From an uncultured archaeon (GTDB lineage Archaea; Thermoplasmatota; Penumbrarchaeia; JASLWR01), in contig CAYFHS010000011.1 in the NCBI GenBank assembly GCA_964342815.1, forward strand, positions 591 to 64,590: a stretch of DNA of 64,000 nt, given 5' to 3'. Of the stretch, positions 17,140 to 40,400 are shown in pieces. The stretch's first letter is position 1. Each line of letters opens with the position of its first letter. The notes beneath the pieces are model-generated. The model did not search any database. It had not been told where the DNA came from and saw nothing but the letters and a program-made list of their open reading frames with translations. The position numbers were made by a program, and so were the translations under genes.

Positions 17140-18969
17140 CTAATCCACCGTCAGCGTTTTGGAAAGATTCCTTGGATAATCCGGATCGATCCCGTTTTCC
17201 GTTGCCCAGAAATAGGCCAGAAGCTGTATCGGTATAATATTGATGAGCGGACTCAGGTTAGGTCCCGCCCGTGGGGTTGCAATATAATGATGGCTGTTCA
17301 TCCTTAAGGAGCGGGAATCTTCGGATATTACTATTACACGCCCCTTTCTGCAGGATACTTCATTCATGTGAGACACTATCATATATGTGTCCTCCGGGGT
17401 GGTAATGAATATTATGGGATAATCCTCTGTAACGATGGACAGGGGGCCGTGCTTGAACTCGGAACTGTACATCCCCTCGCAGTGGACATAAGTTATCTCC
17501 TTGATCTTCAGAGCTCCCTCGAGGGCGATACCGTGGCAAACGCCGTACCCGAGACAGTAGCAATCCTGCGTCCCATGCAGTTTCTTCGCCAGTTTCTTGA
17601 CCTTTGGTTTCACGTGCTCGATAGTTCGGGCAAGAAGGTGAGGCAGCGTGTGCAGCTCTTTTGTCAATTCCCGGGACCGCCTTGCCGAGAGCCTTCCAGT
17701 GAGCTTACCCAGTTTAAGGGCCACGAAATAAAGCAGGATCACCTGGTTCGTGAACGTCTTTGTGGCCGGCACGCTTATCTCGAGATCGCAGACTAGGGGA
17801 AGATAGACGTCGGTGTTCAACATTAGTGTGGAGCCAAGCACGTTCAGGATGCCCAGCAGGGTTCCTTTTTCGGTCTTGCGAAGGAAGTTCAAGCCGTTTA
17901 TTACGTCTTTTGTTTCCCCGGATTGTGAGATGAAGATAACACAGTCCTCGTCGGTGATCGAATAACCGTAGTTGTCTATGAACTGCCCGGCGATGACCGG
18001 TATGACCGGCATTCCTGCGAACTTGTTGAAGAAATACGATCCGGTAATGGCCGCGTTCAGCGACGAGCCGCATGCAACGATGAACGTCCTCCTTGCTTCG
18101 GCGATACGTTCTATAAAACTGTCAACGAAATCGGATTCCTCCAGAGTTTCGAGCAGCATCTCAGCTCTTTTGGGCTGGTCGTATATCTCCTTTAGCATGA
18201 AATGGTCGAACCCGCCTTTTGTGGCCGTCTCCGGGTCAAGTTCGCTCTCTTTTGGTTTACGGGCGATTTCCTTTCCGTCCTCTATTGAAAATATCTCAAA
18301 TTTATTCTCGTCGAAGCGGACGCACTCACCATCTATCAGGGGTAGTATCATTTTGGTCAGTGGAAGTATCGACGGGAGATCGCTGCTGCAGCATATGAAA
18401 TCCTCGCCCACACCGAGATAAAGGCTGCTTCCTCTTTTTACAGCATAAATTTCATTCGAATGGATGGTTGTTATCACAAAGGCATAGTCACCGTGAAGGT
18501 CCTCGTCCCCTCGCATTATCGCCGCTTTGAGATCACCTCCGTTCTCATCGTAATATTTTTCCACTGTGTGAACCACCATCTCCCCGTCGTTCCATCCCCG
18601 CACCTCATGGCCTTCGCTTTTGTATAAATTCTTCAATTGGGTGCAGTTGACGATATTACCATTGTGAGCACCTATCATATCGCCGTCACAATCGTAATGA
18701 GGTTGGGCGTTTCTTCTGGAGGGCCTTCCGAACGTTGCCCAGCGTAATTGTATGATGCCGCGCTCGCCGACGACCTCGCCGAACTGGTGGTCCAGGCTCA
18801 CCTGTTCGATGGTTCCGGCATCTTTTCTCAGCTCGGTATTTTTACCGTCCACCACCCCGATTCCCACCGAATCATAACCCCTGTAAACCAATCTGCGGCC
18901 CGCCTCAAGGAGTATCTTTCCCATGTCTGCATTTCTAGTACCGTATACTATTCCGAAGATTCCACACAT
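17140..18969 (-). CDS. glmS: Glutamine--fructose-6-phosphate aminotransferase
   Basis: The ORF starts at 18990, but MCGIFGIV requires Cys at position 2 (Ntn nucleophile), so the start is 18969. Two SIS domains. Conserved C-terminus ...KTLTVD followed by TAG. Confidence 0.95.
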   Translation of the reverse strand: MCGIFGIVYGTRNADMGKILLEAGRRLVYRGYDSVGIGVVDGKNTELRKDAGTIEQVSLDHQFGEVVGERGIIQLRWATFGRPSRRNAQPHYDCDGDMIGAHNGNIVNCTQLKNLYKSEGHEVRGWNDGEMVVHTVEKYYDENGGDLKAAIMRGDEDLHGDYAFVITTIHSNEIYAVKRGSSLYLGVGEDFICCSSDLPSILPLTKMILPLIDGECVRFDENKFEIFSIEDGKEIARKPKESELDPETATKGGFDHFMLKEIYDQPKRAEMLLETLEESDFVDSFIERIAEARRTFIVACGSSLNAAITGSYFFNKFAGMPVIPVIAGQFIDNYGYSITDEDCVIFISQSGETKDVINGLNFLRKTEKGTLLGILNVLGSTLMLNTDVYLPLVCDLEISVPATKTFTNQVILLYFVALKLGKLTGRLSARRSRELTKELHTLPHLLARTIEHVKPKVKKLAKKLHGTQDCYCLGYGVCHGIALEGALKIKEITYVHCEGMYSSEFKHGPLSIVTEDYPIIFITTPEDTYMIVSHMNEVSCRKGRVIVISEDSRSLRMNSHHYIATPRAGPNLSPLINIIPIQLLAYFWATENGIDPDYPRNLSKTLTVD

Positions 18970-18992
18970 AATTCCCTGGATGGGATTCATTC

Positions 18993-19001: not shown

Positions 19002-19088
19002 CTACTCGGAAATTTCGAAATAATAATCACGGTGTGCTATTCTGGATTACTTTCGCCCCATTGTCCATGTTTTCCTCTTTTTTTAAAA

Positions 19089-19290
19089 GGACCTGAGCCC
19101 CCCAGGCAAACGCCCGCAGGAAATATAATATTTCCGAGGGTGCAGATGCATTTCCAATGCATCGTAGCGAAGCGTGCACAGGAGAGAAACGGGCGCAGGT
19201 GCAGCAACAACTTGTTATTGCGTAGCACAGCGAGCACCGGAGTGATACAGGCGCAGGCTTCGGAAAAAAACAAGAGAGTGGAAGTATCTT
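19089..19290 (+). repeat. Modular multi-hairpin element, copy A (unclassified; candidate ncRNA / REP-BIME-like / MITE)
   Basis: Shares ordered motifs with 22219..22423 (rc) and 29510..29881: GGACCTG, CGCCCGCAGG, hairpin, CCGAGGGTG, hairpin, GCAGCAAC..TTGCGTAG. Shares the 13-mer GTGGAAGTATCTT with copy C. Perfect hairpins at 19119-19135 and 19145-19163. Confidence 0.7.
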
Positions 19291-19535
19291 GAATTAACCC
19301 ATATAATAATCACGGAGTGGTGTAAAACAAGGGGAAGTCTTTTTATGCATCTTAAGATATAATGCGCTCGAAGATAAAGGTAAGAAAACGAAAACCAAAA
19401 ACAATAATAGCTCCGAATGACAGCGAGTTCTAAAAGAATTTTTTTCAAAGTCCAAGTGGACAAGGAGCGGACAACGGAAGGTGGGAATAGGAGATTCTGA
19501 TTTTCCAGAATAACAAGGAGAAGAAAGGTGATAAT

Positions 19536-21914
19536 ATGAGTATAGAGAGATTTGAGATTGATTTTTCGGGAGAGAAACTGATAATAGAGCACGGTAGACT
19601 GGCGGCACAGGCAGGGGCTGCGGTAACGGCGCAGATGGGAGGAACCATGGTGCTGGCAACGGCAACCATGTCGAAAAAAGCTAGAGAAGGTATGGATTTT
19701 TTTCCATTGATGGTAGATTACGAGGAACGATATTTCGCGGCGGGAAGAATAAAAGGTCCGCGTTTTATGAAGCGTGAAGGAAGACCCTCCACAGAGGCAG
19801 TATTGAACGGCAGGATGATAGATCGGGGGCTGCGTCCCCTATTCCCCCAGGATCTTCGAAATGAGATCCAGGTCACATGTCTGATTTTGAGTCTCGATCA
19901 AGAGAATCGGCCCGATATAGTGGCAATGATTGCTGCGTGCACGGCTTTGCATATATCCAACATCCCTTTTGCCGGTCCCATAGCAGGTGTACGAATAGGA
20001 CTGATGACAGGGGATCTTATCGTCAACCCAATAGCAGACGATCTGGAATACTGCGACCTGCAATTGACGGTCATGGGTGATGGGGAGCGTATCATAATGG
20101 TGGACTGCGAGGCGAACGATATTGTCGATGAGGAGATAACGAAAGCCTTCAAAAAGGCTATGGAGGTCATGGGGCCCATGGCTAAGTTCATCGACGATAT
20201 TAGAAAGAAGGTAGGTGTTGAAAAGGCATCCTTGGATGATCTTATTATGAGGGGGAGTTTTTCCAAGGAGGATCTGAAGGTTTGGGGGCAGATGAAGAAA
20301 GCAGCAATCCCACATTTGGACAAGTACCTGTTCAACACTCCCAAAGGCTCCAAGGGAGAGCGAAAGGAGATACTTGGCGGCCTTAAGACCTTGCTGCTGG
20401 ACGAGTTCGTAAAGAAACGGACGGGAAAGAAGGCAGGTAAGAAAACCACTAAGAAGACCGCCTCTAAGGACGTCGAGGAAGAAGAACGAAAATATCTGAA
20501 AAAATTAATGGATCATTTCTTTTTCGAATTCATAGAGGAGCAGGTAACGGTAAATATTCTTGAAAAGGACAAACGTGTTGACGGAAGGAAACTTGATGAG
20601 CTTAGAACTCTGTCTGTGGAAAACGGTCTACTACCAAGAACTCATGGTTCCGGGCTTTTCTCGAGAGGCGAGACCCAGGTATTATCCGTTGTGACTCTTG
20701 GGGCCCCGGGAGACGATCTGTCAGTCGAGTCAATGGAAACAGATGCGTCGAAAAAGTTTTTCCATCATTATAATTTTTTAGGGTACTCGGTCGGCGAGGT
20801 AAAACCCATCAGGGGAGCTGGCAGACGCGAGATCGGTCACGGCGCTCTTGCCGAGAAGGCACTGGTGCCCGTCATACCCCATGAAGAGGATTTCCCCTAT
20901 ACCGTGCGGGTGGTCAGTGAGGTTATGGGTTCCAACGGTTCGTCTTCCATGGCTTCCACCTGCGGGTCGACCATTGCCCTGATGGATGCGGGAGTCCCGA
21001 TCAAGAAGCCTATTGCGGGAATCGCCATGGGTCTTGCTTCGGATGGAAAAAAATGGAAGGTCCTTACGGATATCCAGGATCTCGAAGACGGTCCCGGGGG
21101 TGCGGATTTCAAGTTCACAGGTTCTCGCGACGGTATCACGGCCATCCAGATGGACACAAAGACCGGCGGACTCACTCCGGACATAATTGAAGCCACAATG
21201 CCGCAGATGCGAAAGGCTATGAACGAGATTCTCGATTCCATAGAGAGTGTAATCTCCGAGCCCCGTGCCGAGTTATCCAAATTCGCTCCCAGGATCATCA
21301 ATTTCATGATCGATCCCGAAAAGATCGGAGAGGTTATCGGACCGGGAGGAAAGATAATCCGGGGGATAACTGCCGATCTCGGCGTACAGATAGATATAGT
21401 CGACAGCGGGATGGTGATGGTCACCTCCACGGATTCGGAGAGTGCCGATGAAGCTGTAAAGACAATACAGGATATCGTCCGAGTTGTTGAAATTGGCGAT
21501 ATATTTGAAGAGGCCGTGGTAGTAAAGATCATGAATTTCGGCGCTTTCGTAAACCTGAAACCGGGGACGGACGGACTGTGCCACATATCAGAGATCGAGT
21601 GGGGTCATGTTGGCCGGGTGGAGGAAGTGCTGAATGTAGGTGATAAGGTCAAGGTGAAGGTCATAAAGAAGGAACGGGGCAAGATCGACGTTTCGAGAAA
21701 GGCACTTCTGCCCAAGCCCGAAGGATATGTTGAACCGCCAAAAAGGGGCAGAGGCCCTCCAGGCGGAGGCCGGGGCGGTTATGGAGGTCGGGACAGACGG
21801 GGAGGAGGCCGAAGGGGCGGAGGTGGCGGTGGAAGGGGCGGAGGAGATCGTAGAGGCGGTGGTGGACGAGGCGGAGGCCGGGATTCCTACAGAGGCGGCG
21901 GGAACAGGAACTAG
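19536..21914 (+). CDS. pnp: Polynucleotide phosphorylase with Lys-rich insertion and C-terminal RGG-repeat tail
   Basis: FPLMVDYEERYFAAGRIKGPRFMKREGRPS, two RNase PH domains, KH (IGEVIGPGGKIIRGI) and S1 (NFGAFVNLKPGTDGLCHISEI). The last ~57 aa are GRGGYGGRDRRGGGRRGGGGGGRGGG... TAG stop. Confidence 0.95.
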   Translation: MSIERFEIDFSGEKLIIEHGRLAAQAGAAVTAQMGGTMVLATATMSKKAREGMDFFPLMVDYEERYFAAGRIKGPRFMKREGRPSTEAVLNGRMIDRGLRPLFPQDLRNEIQVTCLILSLDQENRPDIVAMIAACTALHISNIPFAGPIAGVRIGLMTGDLIVNPIADDLEYCDLQLTVMGDGERIIMVDCEANDIVDEEITKAFKKAMEVMGPMAKFIDDIRKKVGVEKASLDDLIMRGSFSKEDLKVWGQMKKAAIPHLDKYLFNTPKGSKGERKEILGGLKTLLLDEFVKKRTGKKAGKKTTKKTASKDVEEEERKYLKKLMDHFFFEFIEEQVTVNILEKDKRVDGRKLDELRTLSVENGLLPRTHGSGLFSRGETQVLSVVTLGAPGDDLSVESMETDASKKFFHHYNFLGYSVGEVKPIRGAGRREIGHGALAEKALVPVIPHEEDFPYTVRVVSEVMGSNGSSSMASTCGSTIALMDAGVPIKKPIAGIAMGLASDGKKWKVLTDIQDLEDGPGGADFKFTGSRDGITAIQMDTKTGGLTPDIIEATMPQMRKAMNEILDSIESVISEPRAELSKFAPRIINFMIDPEKIGEVIGPGGKIIRGITADLGVQIDIVDSGMVMVTSTDSESADEAVKTIQDIVRVVEIGDIFEEAVVVKIMNFGAFVNLKPGTDGLCHISEIEWGHVGRVEEVLNVGDKVKVKVIKKERGKIDVSRKALLPKPEGYVEPPKRGRGPPGGGRGGYGGRDRRGGGRRGGGGGGRGGGDRRGGGGRGGGRDSYRGGGNRN

Positions 21915-21958: not shown

Positions 21959-22218
21959 CAAAGCTAAGCCCGATATTCCTTTTTTCATATATTTCGTCTG
22001 CTACCTGATGCAGGCGGCCACGGACCTGGGTTTCGACCTGCCTTTGGTTTTCTCGTGGTTGGGCTTTATCGCCACGGCGGCCATGATAGTGGTCGTTATA
22101 GTTCTGGTGTCACTGCTGACAGTTCGGTTTATCGGGAAAATAGTCATTGCTGACGTGATACGGGAAAGGAGTTCGTAAGTGGCAGTGTATTGTTCGGGGT
22201 AACTTATATCCCTTATCC

Positions 22219-22423
22219 AAAGAGGACCTGCTCCCGTTACACTCTGGTGTAACTGCGTCACACCTGAGCCCTCGGCAATGCTGGATGAAACAAGTTTCAT
22301 CCGCACCCTCGGCATGTGTGCCTACGGGTTATGCCTACGGGCGACGAAAGAAACGCCCGCAGGGTTACGTCACGAGGGCGCAGCAATGCCGAAGGTATTG
22401 CGGAACAGAGTGGGCGCAGGTCC
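22219..22423 (-). repeat. Modular multi-hairpin element, copy B (opposite orientation)
   Basis: The reverse complement starts GGACCTGCGCCC and ends GCAGGTCCTCTTT, identical to the termini of copy C. Internal CGCCCGTAGG-hairpin-CCGAGGGTG-hairpin (GGATGAAA/TTTCATCC, 22283-22302). Confidence 0.7.
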
Positions 22424-22551
22424 GAATCAAAAATAAAAATAAAGAAATATCTTTAAGAAAGAATGCAAATATGGATTGAAACGAAAATAATCAACGATGC
22501 TGATAAGAAGGCTAAATGATCCGCTCAGAACTAAAAACATAAATTAGAGGT

Positions 22552-27370: not shown

Positions 27371-27694
27371 TGTAAAACCTCTTTATCATATATATGTGCT
27401 ATTTTATTGAAAATTAGTGACCACAAACAACCGTCTCGGCCAAATATGTGGTTATACTATAAAGATTGTGGGAAAAATCAGTCTTTAGAACAAAAAATCG
27501 GGTTTAATGGATGGCGTTTAGCGTGGAATTTACAAATCTAACATTACCTCACTGAATCTCTGCTTATTATATTGTTTTATCCACAATTGTAAGCGTAGTA
27601 ATTCTGCTACAGCTAGCGAAAATTTTTAGAGTGAGAAGACTGCAAATTCACCACAATTCGGGCCTCTTTTAAGTGCTATCGAAGTGAGCCGAGA

Positions 27695-27786
27695 ACCCGC
27701 GAGTTATGCGGACGCGGTAGCTCCGAGTATCGGGGGGGCGGAGTCCCCCGAGAAGCGCAGAGTCATGAAGTGCAGACCAAATTAGC
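27695..27786. repeat. Left arm of an imperfect inverted repeat bracketing 27.8-29.15 kb
   Basis: 27763-27786 TCATGAAGTGCAGACCAAATTAGC and 27695-27711 ACCCGCGAGTTATGCGG are reverse complements (with indels) of 29151-29197 and 29203-29220. Contains hairpin TCGGGGG-N8-CCCCCGA. Confidence 0.55.
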
Positions 27787-27993
27787 ATAGTCCTCTTCAT
27801 GGCATATGTCAAGAATGGATTTCGTTTACCTCTTGTTTTGCCTGAGTCTACGGAGTAGAATCGGCTTTATTCTCATAAAATGTGAGTTTCAGTGTAAGTG
27901 TTTAAATGTTGTATCAGATATCATAAGTAGAAAGAGTAACAATATGATAGAGGGCTGAATCACAGTAATTTAATATCAATTATTGGAGAGATA

Positions 27994-29466: not shown

Positions 29467-29505
29467 GGGGGCCGACGCCCCCCTTTACTTTATTATTATT
29501 TTTTT
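29467..29505 (+). terminator. GC hairpin followed by a T-rich tract
   Basis: GGGGGC-CGAC-GCCCCC, then CTTTACTTTATTATTATTTTTTT. Lies immediately 5' of repeat copy C. Confidence 0.4.
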
Positions 29506-29509
29506 GATC

Positions 29510-29881
29510 GGACCTGCGCCCGTAGGAAACTATTGTTTCCGAGGGTGATGGAGAAACGGAGTTTCTCCGAACCCTAGCAAAATCTTTGATATTGCGTCGG
29601 GAGCAGCAACGCCGTAGGTGTTGCGTAGTCTGATTGCACACTTGCAAGCAGGTTAGGTGTGCCGAAGGTACACCGAGATGAAACGCGCGTTTCTCACGTC
29701 GCAGGTCCTCTTTCTCTTTGTTGGTGCGAGCAGGTCCAGGGTGGGTTTTCTGCAATCCTAATACTTTTTGGCATGCATCTTACAGCACACCTGCTGGAAG
29801 AAACGGGAGCGTTTGTGGAGCAAAGGCCCCAGTACTGGCCAGAGCAGCACGTATTCAAAAAGGCTTAGGTGGAAGTATCTT
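29510..29881 (+). repeat. Modular multi-hairpin element, copy C (longest, composite)
   Basis: GGACCTGCGCCCGTAGG-GGAAAC/GTTTCC hairpin-CCGAGGGTG-GGAGAAAC/GTTTCTCC hairpin...GCAGCAAC..GTTGCGTAG...CGCAGGTCCTCTTT (29700-29713). Second GCAGGTCC at 29730-29737. GTGGAAGTATCTT at 29869-29881. Confidence 0.7.
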
Positions 29882-37458: not shown

Positions 37459-40400
37459 TTAAAACCAGTCCTCTAATTCACTATCATCAACCCATTCCTC
37501 TTCCACCCAAACATTGTCATATTCCTTCTCGTAGTCCACCTCGCCCCATTCCTCAATTTCTTCGGGCTCATCTTCGAGCATTTCACCCCATTCCTCAATT
37601 TCCTCGGGCTCATCTTCGATCACCTTGTCCCATTCTTCAATGTATTCTTCAACTTCTTCTATCCATCCCTCCCCCGTGAGAATTTCATCCTCCTCGTCCT
37701 CAATCCATCCATCTTCCATATCGAAGCTTTCCCCCTCTCCAGTCCAATCATCCATTTCTTCTTCATCCTCGATCCATTCTCCTTCCTCTTCAGGAATTTC
37801 GTCCACATCCTCAATCCACCCTTCCCCCTTTGTGAACATTTCATCCACCTCCTCAATCAGTCCCTCCTCCTCAGCATGGGTTTCTTTCTCATCCTCGATC
37901 CATCCAGTCTCCCCTACAAAGGTGTCCGCCTCATATTCTATCCAATCTTCCTCCCCTGTAAGCATTTCGTCCACCTTCTCGATCAGCTCCGCTTCCTCCG
38001 TGGGCATTTCGTCCACCTCACTCACACCTTTCATCTTTTTGACCTTTTTCCGCCTTTTATATTCCTCTTTCACCACCACGGCAATTTCCTCAGGCAGTTC
38101 CGTTTTTCCACTTTTTTCTTCGACGACCTCCTCTTCGGTTTTCTCGATTTTTCCGGTAGCCGATCTCTCTTCTCGTTTCTTGTAGTATTGGAAAAGACCG
38201 ATCCCCACAATAAGGATCAAGACAACCACTGTGATGAATAAAATTAAGAACCACGTATTTTTTCCCATACCTTTATCCGCGGTCCAGTCACCCTCATCCG
38301 TATTAATATTCCCTACGGTAATGACCATTTCATACGTATCCGACTCACCGTCATCATCGGTTACCTTCAATTCAATGGAAAAAATTCCTTCTTTCAAAAA
38401 ACGATGTTCCAGGTAATCCCCGTAAGCTTTTGAGCCATCGACAAATGTCCACGTATAATTGAGGGAATCTAGGTCCGAGGGGGTATCCGACGTATTACCC
38501 GCATCAAATTCTATTACCTGATCTGCAGAAATTATCTGAGCCGAAGCCGAAAAATGAGCCTGGGGGGCAATATTCCGTATGATAAAACGCTGAGAGCTGT
38601 TGAAAGAGGCTCCGTCGTCGTCAGTTAAATTCATCGATATTATGACCGGCCCGGCTAGGGGGATGGAAAAAGATACGTTCCTGCCGGATCCCACGGCGAC
38701 ATTATCCGCAAGCCAGACAACCTTCAACGAGGGGAGGTCCGAGGGTGTGTCGTAAATATCTTCAACCTCGATTACTATTCTTTCATCCTCGACATACAAC
38801 ATTTTCTTGGGCGTAAAACCACCCGATGGGGCCACATTAACGATTTTTATATTCATACTGGCATTTGCGGTATCGTTGTTGTTATCCCTTACCTGGAATA
38901 CTACATCGTATTCGCTTGAAAGTGTATAGCTGTGGTTAATTTCTGCGTCAACGGCCCAATTCGAGATATTTCCGTCCCCGAATTTCCATCGGTACATGAG
39001 AGAATTAATATCGGACGGGGAATCGTCCCCGGTACCGTCGAATCGAAAAATCTCATCTTCATTTATCGTCGTATTGTTCAGGAGAGGATCTATCTGTGCC
39101 ATGGGTGGATGATTTAATATCGTGACGTTCATGAACTCGTATGCCTGAAGTCCTTCATCATCCATTACAAACAGGGTTGCCTCGTACGTTCCCTTTTCCG
39201 GGTACGCGTGACCGGCGATGGCATTGTTTTCCCAGTCGGTGGAATTTCCGTCTCCGAAATCCCACCTGTATAGTAGAGAATACCTGTCCGACGGTGTATC
39301 GTTGCCGTATCCAGTAAATAGTAGATAACGCTCCTCGTAATCCTCGATGTCCTCCATTGTATGACATACCGGTGGTGAGTTCTTAACTGTTATATTTTTC
39401 GCTACCGAAATGGTGGTCCCCCCGTCGTCTCTTACCCGCATATTGACGGTATAATTTCCGTTGTCCGCATATCTATGCGTTACGTTCGGACCGTAGATAT
39501 TCTGGCTACCATCCCCGAAATCCCATGTCCAGTTCACCACTGTACCATCGGAATCCGAGAATGTCGATCGAAAAAGAACCTTTTCATCAACATCCGGAGT
39601 TACCGGGTCATATGAAAAGTTCGCAACAGGGGGTACGTTGCCCTTCCACGTGAGAACAGTGATGGAATGAGGTGGAAGCGTCAGCGAGTAATTAAATGTA
39701 AAATCGTCCAGATCGTACCGAGCGATAGAAACGTTCTCTGCTTTTCCTTCATTGTGATCATATATGTCCGGAGAAGCCAGCACATATTTCTTTGCCGCAG
39801 ACCCAGGGTTTGTCTCGACGTCGAGCCGTACAACCTGATCGAGGGTTCTGTGAAGGTTATACAGTATAAGGGACCCGTTCTTTTCATTCTTGAAGGCGAA
39901 GGAATGAACATATGAAACATTCATCTGCTGTGATATGCCGTTTATAGGCAGCTGTACCCATTTTGCTTCGTCATAGGAATGTACTGTCCGAGTCATATCG
40001 CCGAATATAGCTTTATTTGCGATCTCAACAGATAACCATGTTGGTCTCTTATTTTTAGTTCGGTCCAGGTCCCGGAGCATACCCCAAAGTTTCACATATT
40101 CGCTTGGGTTCGTATTGTACCTGTATGAATACTGCCAGCTGGAGAACGCGGTCTGATCCTTTATGCCCAGATATTTCAAGTAAGTGAGCATGGTGTACGA
40201 AAGAGAAATTCCGCCTCCCTGTCCGGCCACCACCTTGTTACGTACGTCCTCCGGTGGATCGGTGGCATGGGTGGTATGGAAATTTATCTCATATATCACG
40301 GGCTCTGTATCGTGCCCACCTGATCTTATATTGTCAACTCCTTCCTTGAAAGCTCCTCCATTGGTGTATTCGGTTGGAAGTGCATATAGAGAGCCGAAGA

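Follow-up and report, generated by a model that had tools for sequence, protein, structure and literature searches.

The locus

The DNA analysed here is a stretch of 64,000 nucleotides (the window) of contig CAYFHS010000011.1, assembly GCA_964342815.1, in which an initial annotation made from the letters alone had described a modular multi-hairpin element in three intergenic regions (copies A, B and C), with copy A lying between the divergent genes glmS (confirmed at 17140-18990, - strand) and pnp. The modular family proved to be real, with ten strong copies recovered in three lineages after a covariance model had been built and searched, and it is apparently undescribed: it consists of strongly folded, modular intergenic repeats of marine Thermoplasmatota.

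The host of the window is a Thermoplasmatota archaeon. The 792-aa protein encoded at 19536-21914 was identified as a bacterial-type polynucleotide phosphorylase (PNPase; NCBIfam, 814 bits), and its closest relatives were encoded by Thermoplasmatota metagenome-assembled genomes (MAGs), the nearest being that of locus L018 (ETNP2_MAG_1) at 92% identity, followed by about 20 others at 61-69%. A PNPase identical to that of the window was encoded on NODE_228599 (148.8 kb) of ENA ERZ17294083 and on a Logan contig (run ERR868468).

The TATA box of pnp was located at about 19338 and is followed by a leader (about 200 nt) in which a GCUCCG/CGGAGC helix is conserved; both lie downstream of copy A and are conserved in relatives that have no copy A. 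Copy A thus sits between the divergent glmS and pnp promoters and is outside any mRNA, and its candidacy as a leader or riboswitch of pnp was rejected from these positions. The next genes downstream of A, B and C, each co-oriented with its element, are pnp, a small open reading frame (ORF) and the gene for a 1220-aa surface protein, respectively.

Definition and extent of the family

A covariance model of the core (R1; CCCGYAG, hairpin 1, CGAGGGNG and hairpin 2) was built from eight copies. When both strands of the window were searched with the filters off, copies A, B and C were detected with E values of about 1e-14 (bit scores in Table 1), and nothing else exceeded 13 bits except weaker sub-copies within the same three regions. 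The order of CGCCCGYAGG and CCGAGGGTG, on which the family had been proposed, was recovered in A (19111 and 19134, + strand), B (22343 and 22312, - strand) and C (29517 and 29539, + strand); taken singly, either motif occurred in the window at the frequency expected by chance from shuffled sequence, and it was their ordered clustering that went beyond chance. The likeness of the copies in pairs is limited to words of 12-14 nt, which is why the family was absent from the output displayed by a generic repeat finder (the 20 largest families of direct repeats and the 25 inverted pairs of greatest length). Another G+C-rich segment (27650-27790, within the 623-nt intergenic region upstream of the PFOR gene) contained GCGCAG and GTGCAG words, and was without significant structure (z = -0.5) and without an R1 match.

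Of the ten strong R1 copies (55-75 bits), the window and L100 have three each, L164 has two, and L218 and L221 have a single copy each; individual copies are designated below by contig and number (L100-2, for example). Contigs L100 and L164 both come from Ga0187827, and L218 to L221 are contigs with a PNPase 75% identical to that of the window. Among the 120 matches listed by a pattern scan of metagenomes, for which the pattern was too permissive, 117 were chance matches in high-G+C DNA, the real ones being L100, L164 and L183 (the last from Ga0066834). No copies were detected by R1 in 22 more distant Thermoplasmatota pnp loci or in L222, L223 and L018; scans of viral contigs gave chance matches in coding DNA only. 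Spurious ORFs on other copies were sought by searching proteins with the elements' six-frame translations, concatenated, and no hit was obtained. The density was three elements in the 64 kb of the window and five to six in the 20 kb of L100 plus L164.

The elements had been said to match no known RNA family, and this was borne out: Rfam was blank for the window at gathering thresholds and gave nothing relevant for the three intergenic regions at E values up to 10. The hammerhead, other known ribozymes, 5S rRNA and the glmS ribozyme were rejected, all being without Rfam signal. A tRNA/tmRNA scan of the window returned no genes.

Covariation and strand specificity

The stems of hairpins 1 and 2 given by the initial annotation for A, B and C were correct; they differ between nearly all copies, and the linkers between them are invariant. 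Maintenance of the stems by compensation, also claimed earlier, was upheld by a model-guided alignment of 11 sequences, in which (the alignment being fitted to the model) 97.3% of the cells were paired, 10 of the 18 pairs were changed on both sides and hairpin 2 was 100% paired with six of its eight pairs covarying; this level was reached by none of 500 shuffles. When the 3' partners in the same alignment were slid by 1-3 columns as controls, at most 52% of the cells were paired. A MAFFT alignment of eight sequences gave 95.7% paired cells and changes on both sides in 9 of 19 pairs, matched again by 0 of 500 shuffles, and RNAalifold applied to an independent MAFFT alignment predicted the same three helices. 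These statistics rest on about ten independent copies.

One strand was distinguished throughout. Among the cells that were not Watson-Crick pairs, G·T was counted 14 times against a single A·C, and the element strand folded better than its complement in nine of ten copies; the selected structure is therefore the single-stranded fold of one particular strand. Over 1565 nt of that strand GTAG was found 20 times and CTAC once, and GCAG 24 times and CTGC six times. The resemblance to repetitive extragenic palindromic (REP) sequences, first suggested by GTAG tetranucleotides next to the palindromes, was strengthened accordingly, in that GYAG stands at the 5' foot of nearly every hairpin and on one strand only.

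Anatomy of the elements

Each element is 110-210 nt long and consists of short hairpins arrayed on one and the same strand, in two or three tandem units whose R1 scores decrease along the element. The best-conserved unit is the first, with CCCGYAG, hairpin 1, CGAGGGNG plus two or three bases, and hairpin 2, to which simple copies add a GGA-type linker and a two-pair mini-hairpin GCG(A/T)AGC; the latter is conserved, with covariation to AUGUAAU. Around hairpin 1, CGCCC pairs with GGGUG, so that a constant internal loop is formed (5'-GYA-3' opposite 5'-GA-3'), and the helix is supported by compensation in L221, where AUCC is found with GGAU. The loop was not accepted as a kink-turn, since a 3-nt bulge followed by GA is lacking.

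In minimum free energy (MFE) folds most hairpins end on the 5' side with Y-A before the first stem G and continue on the 3' side with C-G-A/U. GYAG precedes hairpin 1 in all 11 cores, and its final G pairs with the 3' C; most hairpins have a YAG foot. Triloops of the type cGNAg are frequent, no GNRA loops were seen and UNCG loops are few; the cGNAg triloops and the GCG(A/T)AGC mini-hairpin are hyperstable DNA motifs.

The array is usually closed by a long-range helix, the sequence of which depends on the type: GGACCUGCG/CGCAGGUCC in B, C and L100-2, GGGCC/GGCCC in L164-1, and CCGAGGCCGAU/AUCGGCCUCG in L218 and L221. The flanks follow a common order, in which often one or two G+C-rich hairpins are followed by a T-rich tract of 25-31 nt, the element and then TCTTT.

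Table 1. Positions of the elements, their units and their flanks in the window
Feature	Position	Strand	Basis or remark
T-rich 5' flank of copy A (TTTTCCTCTTTTTTTAAAA)	19066..19088	+	T-rich tract of 25-31 nt also before B, C, L100-2 and L164-1
Copy A, whole element	19089..19263	+	Sequence inspection, folding
Copy A, core unit 1	19107..19173	+	R1 69.1 bits, E 3e-14
Copy A, second core unit, weaker, without hairpin 1	19190..19231	+	R1 22.3 bits, E 0.002
3' flank motif GTGGAAGTATCTT of copy A	19278..19290	+	Membership in the element uncertain
Copy B, whole element	22219..22424	-	Fold z = -7.06
Copy B, core unit	22274..22347	-	R1 67.8 bits
Partial core, inverted, within the 5' part of copy B	22350..22411	+	R1 33 bits, E 6e-6
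G+C-rich hairpin GGGGGCCGACGCCCCCC, then T-rich tract, just upstream of copy C	29467..29483	+	Alignment of flanks
Copy C, whole element	29510..29708	+	Fold z = -4.83
Copy C, core unit 1	29513..29578	+	R1 74.9 bits
Copy C, weaker tandem units	29591-29634, 29643-29684	+	R1 20.8 and 11.5 bits

The first core unit of copy A contains, in this order, CGCCCGCAGG (19111-19120), hairpin 1 (GGAAATAT-A-ATATTTCC, 19119-19135), CCGAGGGTG (19134-19142), hairpin 2 (GATGCAT-TTCCA-ATGCATC, 19145-19163) and the mini-hairpin GCGAAGC (19167-19173), with all three hairpins at the positions claimed for them. The second unit is made up of GGGCGCAGG, GCAG, a hairpin (GCAACAA-CTTG-TTATTGC, 19204-19221) and GTAG (19222-19225). 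The 5' arm of copy A, GGACCTGAGCC (19089-19099), is predicted to pair with GGCGCAGGCTTC (19250-19261) or, alternatively, with GGGCGCAGGTGC (19192-19203); the closing helix is imperfect in copy A and clear in B and C, and the fold of copy A is only modestly better than that of shuffles (z = -2.2, against -7.1 for B and -4.8 for C). The motif GTGGAAGTATCTT, which was also found 3' of copy C (29869-29881) and, as GTGAAAGTATTTC, 3' of the L218 copy, resembles the part of the pnp promoter of the lineage that comprises the transcription factor B recognition element (BRE) and the TATA box.

The closing helix of copy B is formed by GGACCTGCG (22423-22415) and AGCAGGTCC (22232-22224), followed by TCTTT, and that of copy C by GGACCTGCG (29510-29518) and CGCAGGTCC (29700-29708), followed by TCTTTCTCTTT; the arms are 180 nt apart in B and 179 nt apart in C. 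G+C-rich hairpins equivalent to that upstream of copy C precede the L100-2, L164-1, L218 and L221 copies. Copy C had been drawn as far as 29881, and this held for 29510-29708 and not for the tail to 29881, which was not significantly structured (z = +0.5), the part at 29709-29858 showing no significant structure against shuffles. Likewise, the shared order had been extended to GCAGCAAC-loop-TTGCGTAG, which is indeed co-oriented with the element in A and C; in B it lies within the inverted partial copy. Beside copy B, a small hydrophobic ORF (MTIFPI..., about 50-60 aa) is conserved downstream of pnp on the opposite strand (window 22000-22160, - strand; L018 6430-6610), and gene callers join it to part of the element to give products of 99-104 aa.

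Variation of the elements at the DNA level

Around pnp, the DNA of locus L018 matches that of the window at about 85% identity along 6.5 kb, and both of its orthologous intergenic regions are without elements, with the flanks conserved. The conserved flanks include both ATAATCAC boxes, that is, the 17-nt repeat found on either side of copy A (19020 and 19304); because L018 carries both boxes and no copy A, the repeat was not made by an insertion, and it was rejected as a target-site duplication. Contigs L218 and L221 share 3546 nt at 99.6% identity as far as an abrupt boundary, past which a cassette of hairpin, spacer and element is inverted and only 86% identical.

Segments of copies B and C recur nearly unchanged beside unrelated genes. 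The core of B is 97.7% identical over 88 nt to L164 4831-4918, in a different genomic context, and C at 29599-29692 is 94.7% identical to L100 5921-6014, while the sole shared gene segment (the TusA/DsrE region) is about 85% identical. The nested inverted stretch of B (an extra 63 nt) has no counterpart in the L164-1 and L100-2 copies, which are otherwise collinear. C, L100-2 and L164-1 contain a two-hairpin module of 55 nt, preceded by CGAGGG and terminated by CGGG, which B and L100-1 lack. The presence or absence of modules is marked by precise junctions, bounded by short repeats (GAGGG/CGGG and CGYAGG/CGCAGG).

L164 also contains a bare version, consisting of the first hairpin and the 3' tail only. 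Directly after this bare hairpin, and before the T-rich tail, lies an ORF-less group II intron (L164 5045-6057), identified by Rfam RF02001 (128.5 bits) and by RF00029 for its domains V-VI (45.2 bits). In L100, two copies are situated between convergent genes and point at the gene 3' ends, and whole elements stand head-to-head in L100 and L164. The ends of short-read contigs fall within or at elements: L217 extends between points in A and in B, L183 begins within a copy, and L220 and L221 end at the polymorphic boundary. Such breaks suggest repetition.

Neighbouring genes and further features

The PNPase of the window ends in a Gly/Arg-rich (RGG-like) repeat tail, which is coded at 21744-21900 by 54-nt periodic repeats. 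It is a bacterial-type enzyme in an archaeal lineage, and relatives of it are present in many Thermoplasmatota MAGs. Within 19330-19535 the promoter of pnp consists of a TTTATATA-type TATA box preceded by a GGGGAAGT box, and the leader contains a long-range helix (UAGCUCCG ... CGGAGCRA) and a ACGGAAGG box; these features are kept in L018, L218 and L222 and partly in L223, and the leader is a candidate autoregulatory leader of the archaeal PNPase gene. The 735-nt intergenic region upstream of pnp in L218, where the gene encodes the 75% identical PNPase, contains a tandem array with a unit of about 35 nt (GGACATTTGTCGGGTGCTGGTTGG...; 2540-2720).

Elsewhere in the window, a 946-aa PKD-domain protein (37459-40299, - strand) has an acidic repeat region coded by a 42-nt periodic repeat at 37540-38020. 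At 296-685 and 1944-2330 lie direct repeats of 212 and 121 nt, about 75% identical and 1648 nt apart; they probably represent tandem paralogous genes of the FGE-sulfatase type, one of which continues past the start of the window.

Interpretation

The family is best read, at a probability that we put near 0.45, as a non-autonomous, mosaic structured repeat comparable to REP sequences, bacterial interspersed mosaic elements (BIMEs) and BOX elements, which spreads or is reshuffled through a folded single strand. This reading is drawn from the variation at the DNA level, from the GYAG tags, from the cGNAg triloops together with GCG(A/T)AGC, from the place of copy A outside any mRNA, and from the group II intron behind the bare hairpin of L164, the position of which is taken as support for formation of the hairpin in single-stranded DNA. 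We infer a mobilising mechanism in which the element would spread and be reshuffled at the DNA level as a folded single strand, the likely agent being a trans-acting HUH/Y1 enzyme of the IS200 or RAYT (REP-associated tyrosine transposase) kind that would read GYAG plus the hairpin. Recombination or slippage between the short linker repeats would add and remove modules, and the module gains and losses described above would be explained by it.

A number of points weigh against a mobile repeat of this kind. Neither the window nor the surroundings of the L100 and L164 copies were found to encode a transposase or HUH protein; the absence of a RAYT-type gene from the window, as the initial annotation had stated, was corroborated by Pfam and NCBIfam scans of 47 candidate reading frames. 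No direct repeat that could be a target-site duplication flanks B, C, L100-2 or L164-1, no clean empty site was found, and the window holds just three elements in 64 kb, each of a different type. RAYTs have been reported from bacteria only (PMC6006769), and the host here is archaeal. REPs keep the sequence of their palindrome, whereas in the present family the stems vary and the linkers are constant; the hairpins are in tandem on one strand and not in head-to-head dimers; and the array is enclosed by a covarying long-range helix, which is more like a structured RNA.

The likeness to REPs and BIMEs of Enterobacteria and Pseudomonas (with their REPINs and the Y1 transposase RAYT) nevertheless extends to short G+C-rich extragenic hairpins tagged at the 5' foot with G-T/Y-A-G, stems containing G·T pairs, and a clustered, mosaic, multi-copy, non-coding and strain-variable occurrence. 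The tag of REPs takes no part in pairing, the repeats reach tens to hundreds of copies in a genome, and the cognate RAYT gene often has REPs on its flanks. Clusters of REPs are mostly inverted dimers (PMC3733652), and an inverted arrangement exists here in part, in the head-to-head elements of L100 and L164 and the one inverted sub-copy in B. For Archaea only Y1 transposases of the IS200 type have been reported, GTAG-tagged REPs and RAYTs being bacterial (PMC3733652, PMC6006769). The family was not filed under REP because it has neither a conserved palindrome nor a predominance of inverted dimers.

Other known systems were compared as well. The BOX elements of Streptococcus pneumoniae (boxA-boxB(n)-boxC) are likewise modular, non-coding and intergenic, often near promoters; their internal modules vary in number, their ends are complementary and their predicted fold is stable. 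Their modules are conserved in sequence, whereas the hairpins here vary with compensation, and there is no sequence relation and a different host domain. Integron attC sites share with the elements a single-strand fold that is kept while the sequence varies, conservation limited to short boxes at the foot, and strand specificity, but no RYYYAAC/GTTRRRY core sites were seen in the sequences of A, B and C, the copies do not form a one-way cassette array (A on the +, B on the - and C on the + strand), and no integron integrase lies nearby.

The rival account that survives best, possible though doubtful in our estimate, is that of free-standing genes for structured small RNAs (sRNAs), perhaps carried on small duplicating cassettes. 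The upstream hairpin would act as an insulator, the promoter would lie in the A/T-rich spacer of about 30 nt, and the transcript would start at the closing helix, fold into a three-way junction with the 5'-GYA/GA-3' loop as a bulged-G (loop E/sarcin-ricin-like) module and finish in a U-rich 3' end; it would work by binding or sequestering protein, or as a catalyst. The covarying helices adjoin invariant junction nucleotides, the G·U pairs are confined to one strand, and covariation among types of the closing helix, as well as the change from CGCCC/GGGUG to AUCC/GGAU in L221, would be expected of an RNA, as would the tandem architecture on a single strand. TATA-like sequences 25-31 nt upstream of the L218, L221 and L100-1 copies, the two copies that diverge from a central hairpin pair in the convergent intergenic region of L100, and the retention of each type at 95-98% identity across genomes with about 85% identity to one another point in the same direction. 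The GYA/GA loop, placed between Watson-Crick helices, is patterned like a bulged-G module, but the flanking non-canonical pairs of that module are replaced by C-G and U alternates with C, so that the likeness is one of sequence pattern. A same-strand hairpin array with a repeated short motif, variable modules and several paralogues per genome is known from the CsrB and RsmZ sponge sRNAs, in which, unlike here (GYAG...CGA at the hairpin foot), the motif stands in the loops. Strain-level gain, loss, inversion and mosaicism would be unusual for sRNA genes, the loops are mostly cGNAg triloops with no GNRA and few UNCG loops among them, and in the GGACCTGCG-type copies the preceding flank consists almost wholly of T and is not TATA-like.

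Elaborate intrinsic-terminator or insulator hairpins, evolving in place by duplication or slippage and immobile, are considered unlikely. The G+C-rich helices of B, C, L100-2 and L164-1, with TCTTT(C/T) behind them, and the upstream G+C hairpin with its T run, would suit terminators, as would the group II intron just after the bare hairpin, since group II introns of class C insert at terminators. However, A and B lie between divergent promoters and have no upstream gene on their strand, near-identical types occur in unrelated contexts, and strains of 99.6% identity differ by the inversion of the cassette.

Classical MITEs (miniature inverted-repeat transposable elements), with the closing helix as terminal inverted repeat (TIR) and a DDE transposase acting in trans, are very unlikely: the size (110-210 bp), the intergenic position and the lack of ORFs would fit, as would the ends of B, C and L100-2, inverted over 9-12 bp (GGACCTGCG/CGCAGGTCC), but the end sequences vary by type and covary, so that no TIR is common to all copies, a target-site duplication was looked for around the copies and none was found, the compensated internal stems with invariant linkers are unlike neutral decay, and the conserved T-rich flanks fall outside the inverted ends. 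Finally, that the elements are cis-regulatory leaders (riboswitches or attenuators) of pnp, the small ORF and the 1220-aa surface protein is highly improbable in spite of the co-orientation of A, B and C with these genes, since the TATA box and the leader of about 200 nt of pnp lie downstream of A and are kept in relatives without it, the L100 copies between convergent genes are aimed at gene 3' ends, and the downstream genes are mutually unrelated.

The readings as a mobile repeat and as an sRNA are not exclusive, because bacterial REPs also act as RNA, and the elements may be mobile DNA, small RNA or both. Transcription of the element strand, where it occurs, would yield a multi-hairpin RNA of great stability with a U-rich tail, which could terminate transcription or block 3' exonucleases.

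Significance

A tentative proposal is that the family represents either a new class of archaeal multi-copy structured RNA (a closed three-way junction with a bulged-G module and GYAG-footed hairpins on a small mobile cassette, possibly a protein sponge or a ribozyme) or the first archaeal REP/RAYT-like system, its hairpin repeats being mobilised as single-stranded DNA by an HUH enzyme. In the accessible literature, REP/BIME/BOX-type repeats and their Y1 transposases have been described only in bacteria, and the family would extend this biology to Archaea. With its invariant linkers and covarying stems, it offers a tractable case in which selection on a folded DNA strand, for mobility, can be set against selection on an RNA, for a function in the host. 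Short-read assembly is interrupted by the elements, and gene callers place spurious genes on them, so that their recognition improves the annotation of uncultured genomes. If the arrays block 3' exonucleases, there may be a connection to the bacterial-type PNPase of the lineage.

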